DNA from: Dehalococcoidia bacterium | GTDB taxonomy: Bacteria > Chloroflexota > Dehalococcoidia > SM23-28-2 > RBG-16-64-32 | DNA: 64,000 bases | Direction of reading: 5' to 3' | NCBI GenBank assembly: GCA_041481535.1 | Contig: JBGPBZ010000001.1 | Span: 1,065 to 65,064 of the forward strand | Part shown: piece by piece, positions 4,064 to 12,840 of the stretch | How the letters are laid out: the number at the start of each line of letters is the position of its first letter | Numbering within the stretch: the stretch's first letter is position 1 | Position numbers and translations under genes: made by a program | Notes under the pieces: model-generated | The model's input: the letters and a program-made list of their open reading frames with translations, nothing else | Told to the model about the DNA's origin: nothing | Database searches by the model: none

Positions 4064-5407
4064 ATGACTACGCTTCGCGCCGGGGTTGCCAGCGCTGATA
4101 TTACGCCGGCTGTTGGCGGGATGATGGACGGGTATGGCGGGCGGCTGACGCCGTCGCAGGGGGTGCACGATCCGCTTTCGGCGCGCGTGCTGGTGCTCGA
4201 CTACGGCGACGCGGCGTGCGCGATTGTCGGGTGCGACTTGCTCGGTATACACCCGGAGATGACGGCGGAGGTGCGGCGTCGCGCGAAGGCGGCGATTGGT
4301 ATCACGGAGGACGGCGTCGTGCTGGCGGCGATGCACAACCACGCGGGCCCGGTCGGTCTGCGCGCGGGGATGTTCTCGCGGCTGGACGACGCGCTGACGC
4401 AGGCCACGGTGGAGAAGATCATCGCGGCGCTGGAGCAGGCGTGGGCGTCTCGCAAGCCGGTCGCGATCAAGACCGGTGAGACGATCGTCGACACGGTTGG
4501 GATGAACCGCCGCGATCCGGAGTGGCCGAGCGATGCCGTGCTGCGCGTCGTGCTGTTCGACGGTGAGGGCGGGCCGGTTGCGAGCCTGCTGAACTTCGCT
4601 TGCCACGCGACGGTGCTTTCCGGCGCGAACCTGATGCTTTCTGGCGAGTTTCCGGCGGCGGCCTGCCGCATCGTCGAAGCGGCGACGGGAGCAGGCGCGG
4701 TGTACTTGAACGGCGCGTGCGGTGACGTCAACCCGATGTGGATGCGCCAGGACTTCGCCAGCGTGGAGCGCGCGGGGCAGGCCATCGGCGGCGCGGCGGT
4801 GCGGCTCATCGCCGACTTGCGCGCCGCAGGCGAAGGGTTGCGCGCGCACAACATTCGCTGGGACGAGTTTCCGGAGCGGCCGGTCGCCGGTCGCGTCGTG
4901 GAGCCAAAGCTGCGTATTGTGCGGCGGGAGATCGACCTGCCGCTGCGCGAGTTTGAGCCGGACGAGGCGTACGTAGCTCGGATCGAGCAGGCGCGGACGG
5001 AGGCGGACAAGCATCCCGCGTCGTCGCCGCCGCGGCGTGAGGCGATTGCGAAGCTGCAGCGGTTCGGAGGCGAGCGCTGGGCTGCCGCGTGGGCCCGCCG
5101 TAGCGGGGAGTCCGGCACGAGACGGGCCGAGGTGCAGGCGATGTCGCTGGGAGATGGGCTTGGGCTGCTGGCGCTGCCGGGGGAGTTCTTCGCGGAGACG
5201 GGCGCGGTGATCCGGGAGGCGGCCGGGATCGAACAACTGCTGATAGCCTGCTACGCCAACGACTACGTCGGCTACGTCGTCCCGGAGCACGCCTTCGACG
5301 AAGGCGGCTATGAGAGCGGCGTCACATTCTTCGCGGGAGAGGCGGAAGCTATAATCAGAAAAAGCTCGTTGGAGCTTCTATCGGAGGTTAGTCGCGATGG
5401 CGACTGA
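4064..5407 (+). CDS. Neutral/alkaline non-lysosomal ceramidase family protein
   Basis: The N-terminus (ADITPAVGGMMDGYGGR, then HNHAGP) is characteristic of the neutral ceramidase N-terminal domain. The protein is 447 aa. Confidence 0.7.
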   Translation: MTTLRAGVASADITPAVGGMMDGYGGRLTPSQGVHDPLSARVLVLDYGDAACAIVGCDLLGIHPEMTAEVRRRAKAAIGITEDGVVLAAMHNHAGPVGLRAGMFSRLDDALTQATVEKIIAALEQAWASRKPVAIKTGETIVDTVGMNRRDPEWPSDAVLRVVLFDGEGGPVASLLNFACHATVLSGANLMLSGEFPAAACRIVEAATGAGAVYLNGACGDVNPMWMRQDFASVERAGQAIGGAAVRLIADLRAAGEGLRAHNIRWDEFPERPVAGRVVEPKLRIVRREIDLPLREFEPDEAYVARIEQARTEADKHPASSPPRREAIAKLQRFGGERWAAAWARRSGESGTRRAEVQAMSLGDGLGLLALPGEFFAETGAVIREAAGIEQLLIACYANDYVGYVVPEHAFDEGGYESGVTFFAGEAEAIIRKSSLELLSEVSRDGD

Positions 5408-6491
5408 AGGCACATTTGTGTTGGCGGACATCGGCGGGTACACGAAATTCCTGACCGGCGTCGGGATACAGCACGCGAAGGAGGTGACAGAGCACCTCCT
5501 GAACCGCTTGATCAAGTCGACCGACCGCAACTGGAAGGTTGCGAACGTGATGGGCGACTGCGTCTTCTTCTACTCCGAAACGCCCGAGCCGCCGGCGAAT
5601 ACTTTTCGGTTGCTCCGCGGACTGCACGAGGAGTTCCAGGATGCACAGCTCGACATCGCGTCTGGGTCAACGTGTCGGTGCGGCGCCTGCGATCGAACTG
5701 AGGACCTCTCACTGAAGTTCGTAGTGCACGCGGGTGAGTTTGAGGTGCAGAACATCGGCGGGCGCAAGGAGCTGATTGGCCAGGACATCATCGTCGCCAC
5801 TCGGCTCCTCAAGAACTCGGTCCCGGCGCGCGAGTATGTGATCGCCACCCCTGCGGCTCCCGGCGTGGCGGAAGCGTCGGGCGAAGCCGCTCAGCAGGGG
5901 CGCGACGAGCTGGAATCGATCGGGCCGATGGAGTATTCGTACGTGGACCTCGGGCCGGTACGTGACGCCTACCAGAAATCGAAGGCGTTCCACGTGTCGC
6001 CGGAACAGTCCGACCTGACCATCGTCGGAGATATCGACGCGCCGGCGAGCGTCGTCTGGGAGGCGCTGACGACGCTTGAGAAGCGCAAGCTGTGGCAGGT
6101 GACGATCAGCAAGATGGAGCACATCCAGGGTGAGGCCGACTCGGTGGGCGAGGTGCACAGTTGCGTGCACGGCGCAAAGAAGATCGTGCACGCTACCATC
6201 GCGATCGATCCGGAGACGATGCAGCAAACGGAGCGTGCCTGGTTCAGCCCGCCGATCGTGAAGGACATCTACATCACCCTCCAGGCGATCCCGCTCTCCG
6301 AGAACCGGAGCCGCTGCGAACTGCGCGGCATTTTCAAGCCCGCTATCCCCGTCGTCTCGACGCTCCTGCGTCCGGTGTTCATACACATGATGAGGAGCGA
6401 CATCCGGAAAGACTTGGCTGGTCTGAAGGAACTTTGCGAGACGGGCAGGGTCGCCGCGCGGGAAGCGGAAGCCGCGAAATCGGCGGCATGA
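5397..6491 (+). CDS. DUF2652 (nucleotidyl-cyclase-like) domain fused to an SRPBCC/START-like domain
   Basis: FVLADIGGYTKF at the N-terminus is typical of DUF2652. The C-terminal roughly 150 aa resemble a polyketide-cyclase/SRPBCC lipid-binding fold. The start overlaps the ceramidase stop. Confidence 0.65.
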   Translation: MATEGTFVLADIGGYTKFLTGVGIQHAKEVTEHLLNRLIKSTDRNWKVANVMGDCVFFYSETPEPPANTFRLLRGLHEEFQDAQLDIASGSTCRCGACDRTEDLSLKFVVHAGEFEVQNIGGRKELIGQDIIVATRLLKNSVPAREYVIATPAAPGVAEASGEAAQQGRDELESIGPMEYSYVDLGPVRDAYQKSKAFHVSPEQSDLTIVGDIDAPASVVWEALTTLEKRKLWQVTISKMEHIQGEADSVGEVHSCVHGAKKIVHATIAIDPETMQQTERAWFSPPIVKDIYITLQAIPLSENRSRCELRGIFKPAIPVVSTLLRPVFIHMMRSDIRKDLAGLKELCETGRVAAREAEAAKSAA

Positions 6492-6970
6492 GCGGCGACG
6501 GCTGCCTGGCCTGTGAGCTCGCCTCCGGGAAGCAGCCGCTCGTTGGTGGGACGATTCACCGAACGCCACACTGGACGGTGGAGCACTGCGTTGGGCCGCT
6601 CGGTGTCGGCACGCTGATCGTCAAGCCGCTGCGGCACGTGGTGCGCTTCGCTGAGCTGACAACGCCGGAAGCCGCTGAGTTCGGGCAGCTGCTGCACATG
6701 GTCACGCGCGCTCTCGGCGAAGAGCTGGAGCCGGACCAGACGTACATCACAGAGTGGTCGCACGCCGGGTTCGTCGCAGGGCACATCCATTTCGTCGTCC
6801 AGCCGGCTTGGGACGCGAACCGTGAGCGCTTCGAGCGTCCGGGGCCGTTCACTCAGGTCGCGATGTTCGAGTCAAACGTGCCGCTGAACGAGGCGGCGGT
6901 CGTCGCCTTCTGCGATCGCCTGCGGGCGCGAATGGCCAGCGTTCGAGGAAAGAGCGGCGGACAACAGTGA
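6488..6970 (+). CDS. HIT (histidine triad) family hydrolase
   Basis: The histidine triad motif is AGHIHFVVQP. The N-terminus is Cys-rich (CLACE). The ATG at 6488 overlaps the upstream stop (ATGA). Confidence 0.7.
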   Translation: MSGDGCLACELASGKQPLVGGTIHRTPHWTVEHCVGPLGVGTLIVKPLRHVVRFAELTTPEAAEFGQLLHMVTRALGEELEPDQTYITEWSHAGFVAGHIHFVVQPAWDANRERFERPGPFTQVAMFESNVPLNEAAVVAFCDRLRARMASVRGKSGGQQ

Positions 6971-7788
6971 GCAAGCGTGTACTGGTCATCGTCGCGCACG
7001 CGGACGACATGGAGTTCTTCGCAGGCGGCACGATCGCGAAGATGGCGGGCCTCGGCTACGAGATCCGCGAGGTGATCGCAACGAACAACGAACGCGGGAC
7101 GTTCGATCCGGAGTGGAGCGCGCGCTTTACGGCGGACACGCGGCGCGAGGAGGCGCGACGAGGCGCGGCTGTGCTTGGTGTGAACGCTGACGTTGAGTTC
7201 CTCGGGTACGAGGACGGGCGGCTGAGCGAGACGCCGCTCAACGAGCTGCGGGAACGCTGCATGCGCGCGATCCGCCGACACAAGCCGGACGTGTTGTTCA
7301 CGTGGGACGCCTTCGCGCCGTACGAAGAGCATCAGGACCACCGTTCGGTCGGGCTGGCGGCGACGGAAGCGGCGAGCTTCTCGCCCTTCCCGCTGTACCA
7401 CCCGGAGCACCGCGACGAGGGGCTGGAGCCGCACTACGTGGGTGAGCGTTACTACTTCGCGAAGTCACCGCGCGACGCGAACAAGATCGTCGACATCAGC
7501 AAGACGATCGGCACGAAGATTGATGCGCTGTGTGAGCACGTGTGCCAGATGGAGATGACGGTGGCGGAGCTGCAGACGACGCTCGCCGCCTCGGGACTCG
7601 ACATCCCGGCGCTGGCGGACGCTGACCCAAAGAACTACCGCCCGATCATCGAGAGGATGATCAGGGGCTGGGCTGGAGCCGTCGGGCAGCGAGCGGGGTT
7701 CGCGTACGGCGAAGAGTTTCGCCGCGTGAGGTTCAGTGGCGTGGAGCGCTGGGGCCGCGGCACGGTGGAGTTACCGGACGAACTGTGA
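6967..7788 (+). CDS. PIG-L / LmbE family N-acetylglucosaminyl deacetylase
   Basis: VIVAHADDMEFFAGG matches the AHPDDE-type motif, and the downstream HQDH region fits the family. The GTG start overlaps the HIT stop. Confidence 0.75.
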   Translation: MSKRVLVIVAHADDMEFFAGGTIAKMAGLGYEIREVIATNNERGTFDPEWSARFTADTRREEARRGAAVLGVNADVEFLGYEDGRLSETPLNELRERCMRAIRRHKPDVLFTWDAFAPYEEHQDHRSVGLAATEAASFSPFPLYHPEHRDEGLEPHYVGERYYFAKSPRDANKIVDISKTIGTKIDALCEHVCQMEMTVAELQTTLAASGLDIPALADADPKNYRPIIERMIRGWAGAVGQRAGFAYGEEFRRVRFSGVERWGRGTVELPDEL

Positions 7789-8682
7789 TCAGGCCGCGGA
7801 GGCCGCAGTCGCGGGCACGTGCGCTGGCGTCTCGCGGAGCAGGTCAGCGCGCGGTGTCGTCTCCGCCTCGCCGGCCGTCCCGGTGATCTCGCCGCGCTCC
7901 TCGCAGCGCTGGAAGGCCCGGACAACCTCCGGGTCGAACTGCGTCAGCGAGTTGCGGAGGATTTCCTTGATCGCCATCTCGTGCGGCATCTTCTTGCGGT
8001 GCGGCCGGTCGCTCGTCATCGCTGTGTAAGCGTCGACGACCGAGAAGATTCGCGCGCCCAGCGGGATTGCCTCGCCCTTGAGGCCGCGCGGGTAACCCTG
8101 GCCATCGAACCGCTCATGGTGCGAGCGGACGATGTCCCCGCAGTCACGCAGGTGACGGATGCTGTTCAAGAACTCGAAGCCGAATTCCGGGTGGCGCTTC
8201 ATCTGGGCCCACTCCTGCTCGGTCAGCGCGCCGGCCTTGGTGAGGATGCCCTGCGCGATCTCCACCTTGCCGCAGTCTGCGAGGAGGGCGGCCTTCTGTA
8301 GCAAGCACACATCGTCCTTGCGCATGCCCATCTCGGCGGCGAGGATGCCCGCCAGCTGCCGGACGCGCGCGATGTGATCGCCGCGCATGTCGTCGTCCAG
8401 CTCCAGCGCCGTCGTCAGAGAGCCGATCACGGCGTCGTACTTGTCGCGCGAGTTCTGAATGACCCGCTCGGCACTCTTGTTCGCGGTCTGCAGGCGCCGC
8501 AGCGCGATGTACAGGGCCGCCCACAGCCCGAGGGCCACGGCGACAACCGCTGCGGTCGCGCTGATAAGCAGCGTCACTGCTGCCAAAACGCCGCACACGG
8601 CGGCGACTCTCAGAACCAGCAGAACGGCCCCTACGTAGGGCCGCCTGCGCCCAGGCTTCTTGTTCTTAGACTTGGCTGTCAT
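7789..8682 (-). CDS. Membrane-anchored HD-GYP domain c-di-GMP phosphodiesterase
   Basis: The N-terminus has 2 TM helices. The HD-GYP signature reads HHERFDGQGYPRGL. GGGAGG lies 4 nt upstream of the ATG at 8682. Confidence 0.8.
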   Translation of the reverse strand: MTAKSKNKKPGRRRPYVGAVLLVLRVAAVCGVLAAVTLLISATAAVVAVALGLWAALYIALRRLQTANKSAERVIQNSRDKYDAVIGSLTTALELDDDMRGDHIARVRQLAGILAAEMGMRKDDVCLLQKAALLADCGKVEIAQGILTKAGALTEQEWAQMKRHPEFGFEFLNSIRHLRDCGDIVRSHHERFDGQGYPRGLKGEAIPLGARIFSVVDAYTAMTSDRPHRKKMPHEMAIKEILRNSLTQFDPEVVRAFQRCEERGEITGTAGEAETTPRADLLRETPAHVPATAASAA

Positions 8683-8691
8683 CGGTCCTCC

Positions 8692-9552
8692 CTAAACGCC
8701 CCCGAGTACATCGTCGGCTATCGCATCAATATCAGTGGGTACGTCATCGATCGGCACGGCGTTGGAAATGTGACGCGATGCCTTGTTGGCGTACATGTCC
8801 GCGTCCGCCCACTGGATCATTTCTTCAACTGTTTCGCCGCCCCACGGGTAGCCCGCCAGGCCAATCGAGACGGTGACGGTCAGCGCAACTCCGTTCGACT
8901 CGTACATTGGGATCTGCTCCAGGTCCAGCCACAAGCGGCGCGCCAGTGCGAAGGCGCCGCGCTTGTCAGTGCCCGGCATCACGATCCCGAACTCGTCGCC
9001 GCCGAGCCGCGCCGGCACGTCGTCGGAGCGAGTGTGCGCAGAGATCACACGGCCGAGGTTTGCGATTACGACGTCGCCGACGTTGTGGCCGTACTCGTCG
9101 TTGATCAGCTTGAGCTTGTCCAGGTCCATGATGACGATCGCGAGCGGCCGCTTCGATATCTTCGACTTCTCGATTTCGACACGCGCTACTTCGTAGAAGT
9201 GGCGGCGGTTGTAGAGTCCGGTCAGCTCGTCTCGATAGACCATCTCGGAGAGGTCTTCGATCTGGCTCAGCAGCTGGTTTCGGTAGCGGGCGAAGACGGC
9301 TGTTTCCATGCGGCGCATGATCACGTTGGAGAAGATGGCGTAGCTGAACGGGACGCCGGCGAGGATGCAGTAGAGAGCGAGGTGCCACCAGATACCGCCG
9401 CCCGCAGTCGCGACGGCCACGCCGAGCACCACCGACGTCACCACGGTTACGGCGATGCCGCCCGTCCAGGCGATGCGCGAGATGTTAGTCTCTTCGGCTT
9501 CCAGATCGCCTTCGGGGCGAACCATTCTCTTGGAATTGATAGTCGTGCTCAT
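8692..9552 (-). CDS. Membrane-anchored GGDEF diguanylate cyclase
   Basis: RLGGDEFG is the active site, RYNRRHF/DLDKLKLIND is the I-site-like region, and there are 2 N-terminal TM helices. The ATG at 9552 has GGAAGG 5 nt upstream. The ORF-track extension to 9765 has no RBS. Confidence 0.75.
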   Translation of the reverse strand: MSTTINSKRMVRPEGDLEAEETNISRIAWTGGIAVTVVTSVVLGVAVATAGGGIWWHLALYCILAGVPFSYAIFSNVIMRRMETAVFARYRNQLLSQIEDLSEMVYRDELTGLYNRRHFYEVARVEIEKSKISKRPLAIVIMDLDKLKLINDEYGHNVGDVVIANLGRVISAHTRSDDVPARLGGDEFGIVMPGTDKRGAFALARRLWLDLEQIPMYESNGVALTVTVSIGLAGYPWGGETVEEMIQWADADMYANKASRHISNAVPIDDVPTDIDAIADDVLGGV

Positions 9553-9624
9553 AACGCCTTCCGTCGATCGCGTAGCGATATTTAGTTGCACCGCCAAAGC
9601 GTTCAACGGTAGGCCCTCCAGCCC

Positions 9625-9725
9625 CATCGATTTTCCACGCGTCCGGCGGCCTGGCGGCCGTATCCGTTTTGGCGGACTTAGGCCCATGGCTTTGCGCCCC
9701 ACCCTTTCGGGCGGTTTGCTCTTTT
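9625..9725 (-). ncRNA. Candidate c-di-GMP-I (GEMM) riboswitch in the 5' leader of the GGDEF/HD-GYP operon
   Basis: The minus strand reads AGCAAACCGCCCGAAAGGGUGGGGCGCAAAGCCAUGGGCCUAAGUCC. This matches the GEMM core (GCAAACC, a GAAA tetraloop, GGGRCGCAAAGCC, GGGCCUAA). Downstream, CGCUUUGGCGG can pair with aptamer CCGCCAAAACG, which would form an expression platform. Confidence 0.55.
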
Positions 9726-9849
9726 CCAGCCTGGAATTGGATACGCGGAGTAGCCACGCATCCACTCAGTAAGACGCTACCTGACCAGACCAGTTACATA
9801 AGCAGAAAGTAAGGAAATGGTTGCGATCCTATAGCAGTTGCCGGACGGG

Positions 9850-10797
9850 TTATTCAGCATTTGCCAGTACGTGCGGTTCGTCCGGCTCTATGTGGACGAC
9901 GACGACGGTCCCCGGCAGCCGCTGGTGTATCTCGTCCGCGATGGCGTCCGCCACCTCGTGAGCCTGGTGGACGCTGCTCGAAGCGTCGAACAACAGGTGC
10001 ATATCGACGTGGCGTGAGGCGCCCGCCTTTCGGGTGCGCAGGCGGTGGAACCCGCGGATCTCGGGGCCGTGCGCATCGATCACGTCCATTATCTCTCGCA
10101 ACTCGTGCTCCGGGAGAGCGGTATCGATCACATCGCTAATGGCCGTCCGTACCAGGCCCCAGGCCACCCACGCCATGTACGCGGAGAGAGCCAGCGCCGT
10201 CAGCGGGTCGAAGAACGTCCTGTCCGTCAGCTGGACCAGCAGCAGGCCGGCGATGATCGCGCTCGCCTGGACGATGTTGGTGTGGAGGTGCGTGGCCTCG
10301 GCACTTAGCGCCATCGAGTGCGAGCGCTTCGCCTCGCGCCGCATAAAGAGCGAGGTGAGGAGGTTCGCGACGGCGGCGATGCCCATCGCGATCAATCCAA
10401 CGCCGACGTTGATCTCGGGCGAGCCGGAGATCAGGCGGATGACTGCTTGCGTCGCGACGAGCCCGCCGCCGAGCGCGATGACCGTGGCCGCAACGGAGGC
10501 GGAGACTGCTTCGACTTTGCCGTGGCCATAGGGGTGCGCTTCGTCAGCCGGCGTCGAGGCGATGCGGACGCTGATGAGCGCCGCTGCGCCGCCGACGAGG
10601 TCCGTCGCGCTGTCGACGGCGTCGCCGAGGACGGCGATGCTGCCGCTGATGAGGCCGAGGGTAAGCTTGAGGACGAGAAGGCCGCAGGTGACGGCGAGCG
10701 AGATCGCGGCGATGCGGGCCGGGGCTGCGAACAGTGCCGAGTGCTCCTCGGCGTGAGAGAGCTCGTGCGGCTCAGCGGGACTTACGTGCGATGACAT
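9850..10797 (-). CDS. Cation diffusion facilitator (CzcD/ZitB-like) transporter
   Basis: Six TM helices, an HxxxD-type metal site (DAVDSATD) and a C-terminal cytoplasmic domain. The His-rich N-terminus reads HELSHAEEH. Confidence 0.8.
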   Translation of the reverse strand: MSSHVSPAEPHELSHAEEHSALFAAPARIAAISLAVTCGLLVLKLTLGLISGSIAVLGDAVDSATDLVGGAAALISVRIASTPADEAHPYGHGKVEAVSASVAATVIALGGGLVATQAVIRLISGSPEINVGVGLIAMGIAAVANLLTSLFMRREAKRSHSMALSAEATHLHTNIVQASAIIAGLLLVQLTDRTFFDPLTALALSAYMAWVAWGLVRTAISDVIDTALPEHELREIMDVIDAHGPEIRGFHRLRTRKAGASRHVDMHLLFDASSSVHQAHEVADAIADEIHQRLPGTVVVVHIEPDEPHVLANAE

Positions 10798-11728
10798 TCC
10801 TGGCCGCCTGGGCGATCGCTTCGGGCGTCAGGTTGAAGTGCTCCAGTAGTTCTTTCCAGGTGCCGCTGGTGCCGTAGCGGTCGCGCATCCCCACGAACTC
10901 CATTGGCGCCGGGCGTTGCTCCGACAGGGCCTGCGAAACGATGGTGCCCAGACCGCCGAAGACGAAGTGGTCCTCCGCCGTCACGATGGCGCCGGTTTCC
11001 TCGGCTGATTCTAGTACCGCGTCGGTGTCCATCGGCCGCAGGCTGGAGGCGTTGAAGACGCGCGCTTCGATGCTCTCGGCGGCGAGGATTTCGGCGGCGT
11101 CCAGTGCTGACTTCACGAGCTCACCGCAGGCGATGATGGTGACGTCTTTGCCGTCCCGCAGGCGAGGCCACTTTCCGAGCTCAAATCGATATTTGTCGTC
11201 GAAGATGATTGGCGTCTTGGGGCGAAGCGCGCGGATGTAGAAGGGGCCATCAGTGCGGGCGGCGCATTCGATCGCCTGCTCACATTCGACAGAGTCGGCC
11301 GGGAAGAGGACGGCGAACGGCGGCATCGAGAGCATCAGCGCGAGGTCTTCCAGCCCCTCAGCAGAGGCGCCGTCTTCGCCGGTCACGATGCCGGCGTGGC
11401 TGGCGAAGAGCTTGACGTTGGTGCGCGGCTGGGCGACGGCCATGCGCAGTTGGTCGAAGCAGTGGCCCGGCGCGAACACCGCGAAGCTGCTGACGAAGGC
11501 GACTTTACCGGCTGCAGCGAGGCCGGCGGCGACACCGATCATGTTCTGCTCGGCGACGCCGACCGGGAAGAATCGCTCCGGGAACTTTGCGCCGAACTTG
11601 ACGGCGGAGGTGGAGACGCCGAGGTCAGCGTCGACGCAGACGACGTCGAGGCCGGCCTCGCAGAGACGGGCGAGGGTTGGGCCGAAGACTTCGCGCGTGG
11701 CCTTTTCGCCGTAAGTTTGGACGGGCAT
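10772..11728 (-). CDS. Transketolase, C-terminal (pyrimidine-binding plus C-terminal domain) subunit
   Basis: Sequence typical of the split-transketolase B subunit (GEDGASAEGLEDLALM..P). Its ATG directly follows the TAG of the upstream N-terminal subunit gene. Confidence 0.8.
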   Translation of the reverse strand: MPVQTYGEKATREVFGPTLARLCEAGLDVVCVDADLGVSTSAVKFGAKFPERFFPVGVAEQNMIGVAAGLAAAGKVAFVSSFAVFAPGHCFDQLRMAVAQPRTNVKLFASHAGIVTGEDGASAEGLEDLALMLSMPPFAVLFPADSVECEQAIECAARTDGPFYIRALRPKTPIIFDDKYRFELGKWPRLRDGKDVTIIACGELVKSALDAAEILAAESIEARVFNASSLRPMDTDAVLESAEETGAIVTAEDHFVFGGLGTIVSQALSEQRPAPMEFVGMRDRYGTSGTWKELLEHFNLTPEAIAQAARNVIARKSR

Positions 11729-12647
11729 CTATGCGTCGAATCCAAGCTCGCGGAGGCCTTGCTTCAGTTCTTCAGGGTTCGGCGCCTTGCCGTGGAAGTC
11801 CGGGTTGTTTTCCATGTAAGAGATGCCTTTGCCCTTGATGGTTTCGCAGATAACGATGGCGGGGCCTTCGTTGTAGTCGCGCGCTTCTTCGAGCGCGGGG
11901 ATGACCTGCGAGAAGTCGTTGCCGTCGTTGACGCGAATCACTTTCCAGCCGAACGCCTTCCACTTATCGTCGACGGGCTCGAGGTTCATGATGTTCGCGG
12001 TGTGGCCGTCCGAGAGGACGAATCCACCGCTGAGGTGCGACGGCTCGCGGACATCGCGGGGAGTGCGCTGGAAGTCGGAATAGCCGTCGTTCTGGATGTG
12101 ATTGCGGTCCATGATCGCGACGAGGTTACCGACTTTGTGGTGCGCGGAGGACATGGCGGCTTCCCACGTCTGACCCTCCTGACTGTCGCCGTCGGAGATC
12201 AGGCAGTAGACGTTGTAGTCGCGCTTGTCCAGCCGGCCGGCCAGCGCCTGCCCGAGCGAGAACGAGAGCCCCATGCCAAGCGCGCCGGCCGACATTTCGA
12301 CGCCGGGGGGCTTACCCATGATGACGTGTCCCTGGAGCTTGCTGCCGAGCTTGCGGAAGGTGAGCAGCTCATCGACAGAGAAGTAGCCGGCTTCGGCCAG
12401 CACCGAATAGATGACGGGCGTGGCATGGCCTTTGCTGAGGATGAAGCGATCCCGCTCCGGCATCGCGGGGTTCTTGGGGTCGTGGCGCATGATCGCGAAA
12501 TAGAGCGCGGTCACGATCTCCACCGCCGAGAGCGAGCCGCCGGGGTGGCCGGAGTTGGCGGCCGCAGTCATCTCGAGGATGTGCTTGCGGACGCTGCGGG
12601 CGATCTCTTTGAGCTGGTCGATGGAAACGGTGGAGGCCTGGGCCAAT
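11729..12647 (-). CDS. Transketolase, N-terminal (TPP-binding) subunit
   Basis: GHPGGSLSAVEIVTALYF and GHATPVIYSVLAEAGYF are the TPP-binding signatures. The likely start is the TTG at 12647, with AAGGAG 7 nt upstream. Confidence 0.75.
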
Positions 12648-12752
12648 GAGGTGCTCCTTGCGGGGGATGTACCTCGAATTATAGTGCCGGGAATGCGTGC
12701 CGCAATGTGGATAAGGTGAGGGTGGCGGCTAAGAGGGTATAGCGCGGCTGCG

Positions 12753-12840
12753 GCTGTCAACGGATGGGGGAACGGATTACGGAGCGGGAGCACGTGGCTG
12801 TCAACGAATGGGAGACCGAATTAACGAATCGAGACGGGTG
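12753..12840. repeat. Two tandem ~44-nt units (GCTGTCAACGRATGGG..GAACGRATTA..CGRATCG..GTG) containing AACGRAT direct repeats; a third copy is at 22422-22464
   Basis: Unit 1 spans 12753-12796 and unit 2 spans 12797-12840. Both sit in the divergent promoter region between the transketolase and amidohydrolase genes. Confidence 0.5.

Follow-up and report, generated by a model that had tools for sequence, protein, structure and literature searches.

The 64-kb stretch of DNA analysed here (the window; 64% G+C), whose proteins match metagenome-assembled genomes of Chloroflexota/Dehalococcoidia, carries on its minus strand a gene pair encoding a GGDEF-domain protein and an HD-GYP-family protein, preceded by a leader with the features of a GEMM-I riboswitch (the c-di-GMP-I family; c-di-GMP, cyclic diguanylate). 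This locus raises the question whether the leader holds a genuine riboswitch, what it would sense and how it would act on the genes behind it, and whether these genes form the self-regulating pair of c-di-GMP synthase and phosphodiesterase that a first-pass annotation of the same DNA had seen in them. The riboswitch itself is ordinary, as Rfam annotation would detect it and as genes for HD-GYP and for GGDEF domains were already among the GEMM-regulated families, with more than one instance each, when the motif was described in 2007 (PMC1950547). What goes beyond routine annotation is a G/A polymorphism at position 20 of the aptamer, a subfamily of 'AD-GYP' proteins that is always paired with the cyclase, a promoter that appears similar to those of extracytoplasmic function (ECF) sigma factors, and apparent repeated loss of the aptamer. 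On balance, we favour the reading that a c-di-GMP-responsive GEMM-I switch with a relaxed pocket represses a membrane cyclase/AD-GYP operon by sequestration of the Shine-Dalgarno (SD) sequence.

The GEMM-I aptamer and its bicistron

Upon scanning with Rfam 15, the c-di-GMP-I model RF01051 matched the minus strand at 9730..9642 over its full length (model positions 1-87 of 87; cmscan) with 75.4 bits (gathering threshold 35; E 5.5e-13), and this was the sole gathering-level match in the whole 64 kb. The covariance-model search by which the first-pass annotation had proposed to check its candidate was thus clearly positive. The leader that it had read as GCAAACCGCCCGAAAGGGUGGGGCGCAAAGCCAUGGGCCUAAGUCC is located on the minus strand from 9719 (GCAAACC), with the GEMM hallmark elements where it had placed them. 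The range that it assigned to the system (7789-9725) encloses both genes and cuts the aptamer slightly, which runs to 9730, with the leader probably starting near 9764. The elements of the aptamer are as follows.

9642..9730, minus strand: GEMM-I (c-di-GMP-I family) aptamer, full-length RF01051
9720, minus strand: equivalent of position 20 (Vc2 numbering), A here and G in Vc2
9693, minus strand: equivalent of A47, invariant in orthologous leaders
9646, minus strand: equivalent of C92, invariant in orthologous leaders
9696:9655, minus strand: interhelical pair C44:G83, both bases invariant across 14 leaders
9708..9705, minus strand: GAAA tetraloop, a GNRA-type loop
9683..9678, minus strand: CCUAAG tetraloop-receptor half, accompanied by UACGG

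The latter UACGG is one change away from UAUGG, which we take to be the corresponding half of the 11-nt receptor. The two hairpins are joined by AAA (9693..9691, in GC-AAA-GCC), and the GEMM linker is virtually always AAA (PMC1950547). With Vc2 and Vc1 of Vibrio cholerae and Cd1 of Clostridioides difficile, the window aptamer shares the two-hairpin fold, the AAA linker, the tetraloop and its receptor, the C:G pair, A47, C92, and the location in a 5' leader. It differs from typical GEMM-I elements in having A20 instead of G20, in lacking an intrinsic terminator, in the proposed use of its 3' tail as switching strand, and in its host, an uncultured Chloroflexota/Dehalococcoidia lineage. The c-di-GMP-I pocket implied by the first-pass annotation is therefore correct for A47 and C92, but not for position 20.

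Orthologous loci (numbered L001 and onwards) were gathered from genome, metagenome and assembly collections, partly via look-ups of individual proteins, and contain full-length orthologs of the GGDEF protein at 54-91% identity. A scan of genome contigs with the GGDEF alignment yielded mostly generic GGDEF proteins, with only L001-L003 orthologous among the matches listed. A GEMM-I-clan aptamer lies between the genes for a cation-diffusion-facilitator (CDF) transporter and the GGDEF protein in 23 fetched loci, which represent 14 distinct Chloroflexota/Dehalococcoidia leaders. Across 14 orthologous leaders, the base pairs of the Rfam structure are intact in 92.9% of the cells, as compared to 28-52% in controls in which the 3' partners were displaced by 1-3 columns, and compensatory changes occur at 4 aptamer pairs, mostly in the distal second hairpin. 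The covariation score of the Rfam structure was matched by none of 500 shuffles, and the helices drawn in the first-pass annotation are borne out in homologous loci. A de novo RNAalifold fold of the aptamer alignment was partly unlike the Rfam structure and was set aside, after which the latter was tested explicitly. There is hardly any doubt that the leader carries a genuine GEMM-I-family cyclic-dinucleotide riboswitch aptamer.

The open reading frames (ORFs) behind the aptamer were identified with Pfam as GGDEF (9552..8692, PF00990, E 1.1e-38) and HD_5/HD (8682..7789, PF13487, E 4.5e-34).

8692..9552, minus strand: predicted diguanylate cyclase of 286 aa with a membrane anchor
About residues 27-55 and 60-78 of the cyclase: N-terminal hydrophobic segments
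9003..8989, minus strand: GGDEF motif, residues 184-188
9030..9019, minus strand: RxxD inhibition site (I-site) RSDD, residues 175-178
9105..9073, minus strand: INDEYGHNVGD, with guanine contacts N151 and D160
8683..8691, minus strand: intercistronic spacer of 9 nt, GGAGGACCG, which holds the GGAGG SD of the second gene
7789..8682, minus strand: membrane-anchored HD-GYP-family protein of the AD-GYP variant, 297 aa, with an N-terminal hydrophobic anchor

The TAG stop of the first gene (8694..8692) and the ATG of the second (8682..8680) are 9 nt apart. On the 5' side the pair is preceded on the same strand by the CDF gene, which ends at 9850, and on the 3' side a convergent gene for a PIG-L deacetylase abuts the AD-GYP stop codon. 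Because of these neighbours, the GGDEF and HD-GYP-type genes are considered a bicistron with its own leader, and in this respect, including the 9-nt distance, the first-pass annotation was right. The start of the GGDEF gene at ATG 9552 is also the choice of gene callers. A 357-aa ORF that runs in frame from GTG 9765 across the riboswitch leader (8692..9765, minus strand) was rejected as non-coding in its leader part, as ortholog leaders carry in-frame stops and the callers use ATG 9552. Across 27 orthologs of the cyclase, N151, D160, R175, D178 and GGDE do not vary and F188 is present in at least 90%, and the protein looks like an active, product-inhibited diguanylate cyclase.

Putative promoter, expression platform and proposed direction of the switch

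Upstream of the aptamer, a promoter-like element and a hairpin mark the probable beginning of the transcript.

9770..9798, minus strand: promoter-like element consisting of TGTAAC (9798..9793), a 16-nt spacer and CGTCTTA (9776..9770); in relatives, L161 3769-3796 and L001 2875-2902
9738..9764, minus strand: 5' leader hairpin UGGAUGCGUGG-CUACU-CCGCGUAUCCA, present in minimum-energy folds, where the transcript is predicted to begin

The pattern TGTAAC-N16-CGTCTTA occurs once in the window (0.01 expected), and each of the 26 orthologous loci that reach far enough upstream has exactly one copy of it (spacer of 16 or 17 nt) on the strand of the GGDEF gene and 5' of that gene. It is kept in loci with the aptamer as well as in those without, and it is absent from 149 unrelated fetched GGDEF loci. 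No sigma-70-type promoter was found for the operon, nor a second copy of the element or an obvious linked sigma gene in the window. With its AAC-containing -35 box and CGT-containing -10 box, the element is similar in form to ECF-sigma promoters and is most readily interpreted as a putative promoter of that type. Transcription probably starts near 9764-9760, approximately 30 nt 5' of the aptamer. The pairs of the 5' hairpin are kept in the alignment consensus (columns 4-31), 1 of them with a two-sided change and several others with one-sided ones.

No intrinsic terminator was found on the minus strand, and control at translation initiation is therefore the most likely mode of action. The elements that would serve it are listed below.

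9557..9562, minus strand: GGAAGG, the SD sequence for the GGDEF gene, with 4 nt between it and ATG 9552; kept in all 8 close leaders
9608..9613, minus strand: anti-SD sequence CCUACC, which is CCUUCC or CCUUUCC in orthologs
9588..9602, minus strand: platform segment ACGCUUUGGCGGUGC, with hardly any change across the close clade
9637..9650, minus strand: switching sequence GCCGCCGGACGCGU, comprising the final three bases of P3's 3' strand, C92, the 3' strand of P1 and the bases that directly follow it (GCCGCCG-G-A-C-GCGU, 9650..9637)

The platform segment has two possible partners, i.e., the 3' tail of the aptamer, in a pairing designated helix D, or positions 9582..9570 within an SD-sequestering hairpin. 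In the full-length minimum-energy folds of the window, L166, L161 and L163, the anti-SD is paired with GGAAGG. The mean probability of the SD being unpaired is 0.17 in the full-length fold of the window versus 0.52 when helix D is enforced, upon which the anti-SD is taken into a local hairpin. RNAalifold yields helix D as the consensus for 8 leaders. The helix also forms in minimum-energy folds of window transcripts at nascent lengths of 173-191 nt, and folding of prefixes recovers it in each of the 8 close leaders, in 4 of which it lasts to near full length. Its energy of -22.3 kcal/mol, which 2.5% of the shuffles attain, makes it the leader's best duplex, and the tail-platform duplex ranges from -19.8 to -26.2 kcal/mol across the 8 close leaders.

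The first-pass annotation had proposed another switch helix, in which CGCUUUGGCGG (9601..9591) pairs with CCGCCAAAACG (9675..9665) in the loop of the second hairpin. The two are indeed complementary at 10 of 11 positions, and with an enforced-helix energy of -91.0 kcal/mol this pairing comes near helix D (-91.6 kcal/mol). The complementarity does not rise above chance, however: 10/11 matches to the 11-mer occur 5 times in the window (3.2 +/- 1.6 expected), and in 61% of shuffled leaders a duplex with the platform segment arises that is as good as this one. Moreover, none of the 10 pairs is present in the minimum-energy fold of any nascent length, and the duplex amounts to only -10.5 kcal/mol in L081 and -6.6 kcal/mol in L171, since it is with its own stem that the loop covaries, the platform being fixed. 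Helix D, as the candidate switch helix, is better supported than this pairing. Further partners for the GGCGG of the platform were weaker, i.e., ACCGCC in the first hairpin (-87.2 kcal/mol) and CCGCCAGG in the P3 3' strand (-85.8 kcal/mol).

In the mechanism that we propose, transcription would start about 30 nt 5' of the aptamer from the TGTAAC-N16-CGTCTTA element, and the aptamer (9730..9642) would sense c-di-GMP through a relaxed pocket with A20. In the ligand-free state the 3' tail (9650..9637) would pair with the platform segment (9602..9588), CCUACC would be held in the local hairpin, and GGAAGG would be accessible. Upon binding of the ligand, the tail would be locked in the aptamer, the platform would adopt the long hairpin with CCUACC:GGAAGG paired, and translation of the cyclase would drop; expression of the downstream gene would probably drop as well, via coupling or mRNA fate. 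Such an OFF switch would exert negative feedback on c-di-GMP synthesis, added to the RxxD product-inhibition site of the cyclase. OFF is the simplest logic because helix D cannot coexist with the ligand-bound aptamer, and it is the direction of Cd1. Judged from these folding models, translational control through SD sequestration is reasonably probable, and for the OFF direction the balance is even.

Several observations count against the proposed chain of events. The pairs of helix D are intact in 99.1% of the cells yet almost invariant, with zero double-sided changes and a shuffle control that was not beaten, so that the helix has the support of conservation but not of covariation. In the full-length window RNA the SD-sequestering fold is ahead by approximately 7-12 kcal/mol, irrespective of whether the aptamer is enforced. 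A switch of purely thermodynamic nature is therefore not predicted, and the model has to rely on kinetic (co-transcriptional) control. Across the 8 leaders, just 74% of the platform hairpin is paired, and the distant riboswitch-bearing orthologs L174 and L091 have different platforms and no tail-platform helix. To these are added the departure from the GEMM-I pocket at position 20 (A9720 instead of G) and seven orthologous loci in which no aptamer was found despite ample upstream DNA.

Some of these observations also feed the alternative that survives best, in which the aptamer is real and works through another platform, either as an ON switch or via Rho-dependent termination or mRNA stability rather than ligand-induced SD sequestration. 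The SD is hidden by folding with or without the aptamer, which obliges the OFF model to invoke kinetic trapping; helix D is not backed by covariation, platforms differ in distant orthologs, and GEMM-I switches of both signs are known (Vc1 ON, Cd1 OFF). Nevertheless, in the close clade the platform and the anti-SD/SD pair match the aptamer core in their degree of conservation, helix D takes exactly the C92/P1 strand that the ligand-bound aptamer needs, and no alternative fold was found that exposes the SD once the aptamer forms. A different platform is thus a possible but rather doubtful alternative to ligand-induced SD sequestration.

The adenine at position 20 and the probable ligand

In Vc2, position 20 contacts G-alpha of c-di-GMP. 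The window has an A there, as have 5 of the 13 orthologous leaders (L081, L166, L168, L165, and L171), and a G is found in L161, L163, L174, L172, L089, L088, L087, and L091. In the tree of the GGDEF proteins, which is approximate, being a midpoint-rooted neighbour-joining (NJ) tree built without bootstrap, A20 is located in two separate subclades with the G-bearing L161 and L163 between them, which implies at least two changes at this position, to the same approximation.

A20 is the signature of the GEMM-Ib aptamers, which sense cGAMP (3',3'-cyclic GMP-AMP) or are bispecific, and an A20G change in a Geobacter aptamer led to c-di-GMP selectivity. Wild-type Vc2 (G20) binds c-di-GMP with picomolar affinity and cGAMP at 10 uM, versus 53 nM and 120 nM, respectively, for its G20A variant, and Cbe 1-2 of Clostridium beijerinckii, a natural A20 aptamer, binds c-di-GMP at 30 nM and cGAMP at 463 nM. 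A20 by itself is therefore not selective, since Vc2 G20A and Cbe 1-2 still bind c-di-GMP at 30-53 nM. By analogy with these aptamers, the A20 allele of the window probably lowers the affinity for c-di-GMP and relaxes specificity.

The proteins of the operon favour c-di-GMP. The cGAMP-making (Hypr) GGDEF enzymes have Ser or Thr in place of the canonical Asp at the position of GacA-348/PleD-344. The window cyclase has this Asp (D160, in GHNVGD), which does not vary among the 27 orthologs. Likewise, cGAMP-specific HD-GYP proteins carry RxxQ/N where the c-di-GMP type has Rxx[K/R] as guanine contact, and the HD-GYP partner has RxxR, as do all 120 homologs of the set described below. Because both operon enzymes carry canonical c-di-GMP signatures, c-di-GMP is, on the evidence of these motifs, the probable physiological ligand of the window aptamer.

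The competing interpretation is that the aptamer is of the GEMM-Ib type and has 3',3'-cGAMP as its physiological ligand, either by itself or in addition to c-di-GMP, which would tie the operon to an undescribed cGAMP pathway in Chloroflexota. The adenine itself, its status as GEMM-Ib signature with the reported effect of A20G in Geobacter, and the gain in cGAMP binding by Vc2 G20A all speak for it, and the occurrence of A20 in two separate subclades indicates that the allele is tolerated or selected. They are countered by the Asp of the co-transcribed cyclase and the RxxR of its partner, by the close relatives L161 and L163, which have the same operon with G20, and by the preference of the natural A20 aptamer Cbe 1-2 for c-di-GMP. 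Moreover, a motif scan of the 64-kb window showed no other cyclic-dinucleotide gene, i.e., no further GGDEF or HD-GYP gene, and EAL and PilZ pattern matches that look like chance. We consider a physiological role of cGAMP unlikely, and a complete cGAMP module (A20 aptamer, Hypr GGDEF and cGAMP-specific HD-GYP) was ruled out as the principal interpretation by the Asp at the Hypr position and the RxxR motif. Compared with the A20 aptamers known elsewhere (Gs1761 and Gmet_0970 of Geobacter, Cbe 1-2, Vc2 G20A), the window aptamer has the same adenine at position 20 on a GEMM-I scaffold. The Geobacter GEMM-Ib elements govern cytochrome, pilus and polysaccharide genes and need a Hypr GGDEF synthase, whereas the cyclase here is canonical, its partner has RxxR, and A and G alternate at position 20 among close orthologs of the aptamer.

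For two pairs of ortholog aptamers, Rfam preferred the c-di-GMP-I-GGC model RF03167 over RF01051 (scores of 62.7-68.1; gathering threshold 59).

L161 3835-3923 and L162 1780-1868: RF03167-assigned aptamers
L091 2319-2408 and L092 1764-1853: RF03167-assigned aptamers

This variant class is characterized by G at position 47, and the consensus of the RF03167 model reads GACGCGAAg, whereas the window and all orthologs read GCAAAG, i.e., A47. Lacking the defining G47, L161/L162 and L091/L092 were excluded from the GGC ligand class. Their RF03167 matches reflect competition between related clan models, which could mislead automated annotation.

The AD-GYP partner and the distribution of the operon

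The second gene was described in the first-pass annotation as an HD-GYP phosphodiesterase. Residues were mapped by alignment to PmGH (4mcw) and V-cGAP3 (5z7c), and conservation was assessed in the best 120 homologs, which are clustered at 90% identity and share 49-100% identity with the protein of the window.

8283..8266, minus strand: LADCGK in place of HDxGK, residues 134-139, with A134 aligned to PmGH H221
8121..8089, minus strand: HHERFDGQGYP, residues 188-198
8007..7996, minus strand: RPHR, the Rxx[K/R] guanine contact, residues 226-229

The HD dyad thus reads AD, and the equivalent of PmGH E185 is Met, as in the subfamily without a third metal (PMC4159591). Both H221 and E185 belong to the set of eight metal-ligand residues of PmGH, in which an H221A mutation essentially abolished phosphodiesterase activity (PMC4159591). 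Other metal ligands are kept, i.e., H103, H165 and D217, which correspond to H189, H250 and D305 of PmGH. Among the 120 homologs, the position of the HD histidine is Ala in 111, His in 7 and Gly in 2. In PmGH numbering, D222, K225, E278, D305, GYP and RxxR are invariant or altered in a single protein, and H189, H250, H276 and H277 are retained in 90-97%. The first His is lost (Q, P, E or S) in 6/120 homologs and in 5/15 fetched orthologs, and HH is changed to QR in 12/120 homologs as well as in L085 and L090.

Two relatives provide a frame of reference. PA2572 of Pseudomonas aeruginosa, a YN-GYP protein, is enzymatically inactive yet regulatory, and RpfG is active though it lacks two of the eight PmGH metal ligands (PMC4159591), because of which hydrolysis by the AD-GYP protein is still conceivable. 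The likeness to PA2572 and RpfG lies in the HD-GYP fold, an altered HD dyad and a kept GYP. The difference is that the window subfamily replaces just the His (AD, not YN) and conserves the Asp, Lys, H189, H250, HHE, D305 and RxxR, and that its domain has a short membrane anchor as fusion partner instead of a REC domain. The strong conservation of the remaining pocket argues for retained binding of c-di-GMP and metal. A review on RpfG suggests contacts with GGDEF proteins as a possible role of conserved HD-GYP residues, and such a role as GGDEF-interacting protein would fit the conserved cyclase/AD-GYP gene pair. From these sequence features, the label 'phosphodiesterase' is probably wrong in a simple sense, and the AD-GYP protein more probably is an enzyme that is weak or altered, or else a protein that binds c-di-GMP as partner of the cyclase; a robust hydrolase is the less probable option.

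Taken as a whole, the model of the first-pass annotation, in which the CGCUUUGGCGG/CCGCCAAAACG anti-aptamer helix governs a self-balancing pair of cyclase and active HD-GYP phosphodiesterase, is unlikely. The 10/11 complementarity with its enforced energy, the retention of the catalytic-site residues other than the HD His and E185, and the activity of RpfG are in its favour, but the complementarity is at chance, the helix is absent from nascent folds and weak in two orthologs, and both PmGH H221A and PA2572 lack activity. A homeostat of synthase and hydrolase is not established, because the histidine replaced here is the one whose mutation to Ala essentially inactivates PmGH. What may take its place, as a tentative proposal, is a Dehalococcoidia-wide module of a membrane cyclase and a crippled, c-di-GMP-binding AD-GYP protein, in which the G20/A20 toggle would re-set the feedback threshold from picomolar to tens of nanomolar or admit 3',3'-cGAMP cross-talk.

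If correct, the proposed regulation would document riboswitch feedback of c-di-GMP on a cyclase in uncultured Chloroflexota/Dehalococcoidia, in which c-di-GMP signalling has hardly been studied. The natural series of A20 and G20 aptamers before one canonical cyclase would offer a clean system to distinguish affinity tuning from cGAMP cross-talk in vivo, and the AD-GYP subfamily could help to decide whether HD-GYP domains without the His are receptors, scaffolds or altered enzymes.

Wherever an orthologous locus reaches far enough, an HD-GYP-type gene is located 3' of the GGDEF gene. In closer relatives the synteny is wider, with genes for the N and C subunits of transketolase, CDF, GGDEF, AD-GYP, a convergent PIG-L, a small ORF and a DUF2652/polyketide-cyclase-like protein.

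Window 5397..12793, and L161, L163, L165, L166, L171 and L172: syntenic block

The aptamer is less constant than the gene pair. L001, L002, L003, L084, L085 and L093 gave no match even at E <= 1, the leader of L086 equals that of L001, and L169 has no aptamer at the gathering threshold, the sole level searched. Since such orthologous loci exist, the operon can work without the riboswitch. In the NJ tree of GGDEF proteins the aptamer-less loci are spread over at least four separate lineages, and an ancestral riboswitch that was repeatedly lost is the simplest reading of this pattern. That the aptamer is a decaying relic without regulatory role in the window's lineage is highly improbable, as the repeated loss with which the tree (midpoint-rooted NJ) is consistent and the altered ligand contact at position 20 are outweighed by a full-length match of 75 bits, compensatory changes that maintain the helices, and a core and platform that are nearly invariant though the proteins of relatives are only 79-91% identical.

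Some minor features of these loci were also recorded. The aptamer-less operons (L001, L002, L003, L084, L085, L086, L093 and L169) have the promoter-like element with a short leader. A third gene on the same strand, encoding 176-181 aa, follows the AD-GYP gene in L169 (4237-4767), L174 (4227-4772) and L175 (2057-2602) and is absent from the window; its product has a faint DUF6812 match in L169 and no Pfam match in L174. A subgroup of AD-GYP/HD-GYP proteins (L172 3379-4461, L173 2338-3420, P0218, P0223, and P0227-P0239) is approximately 360 aa long, i.e., some 70 residues more than the usual 290 aa or so. Finally, the CDF and transketolase-C ORFs of the window overlap by 26 nt (10772..10797).

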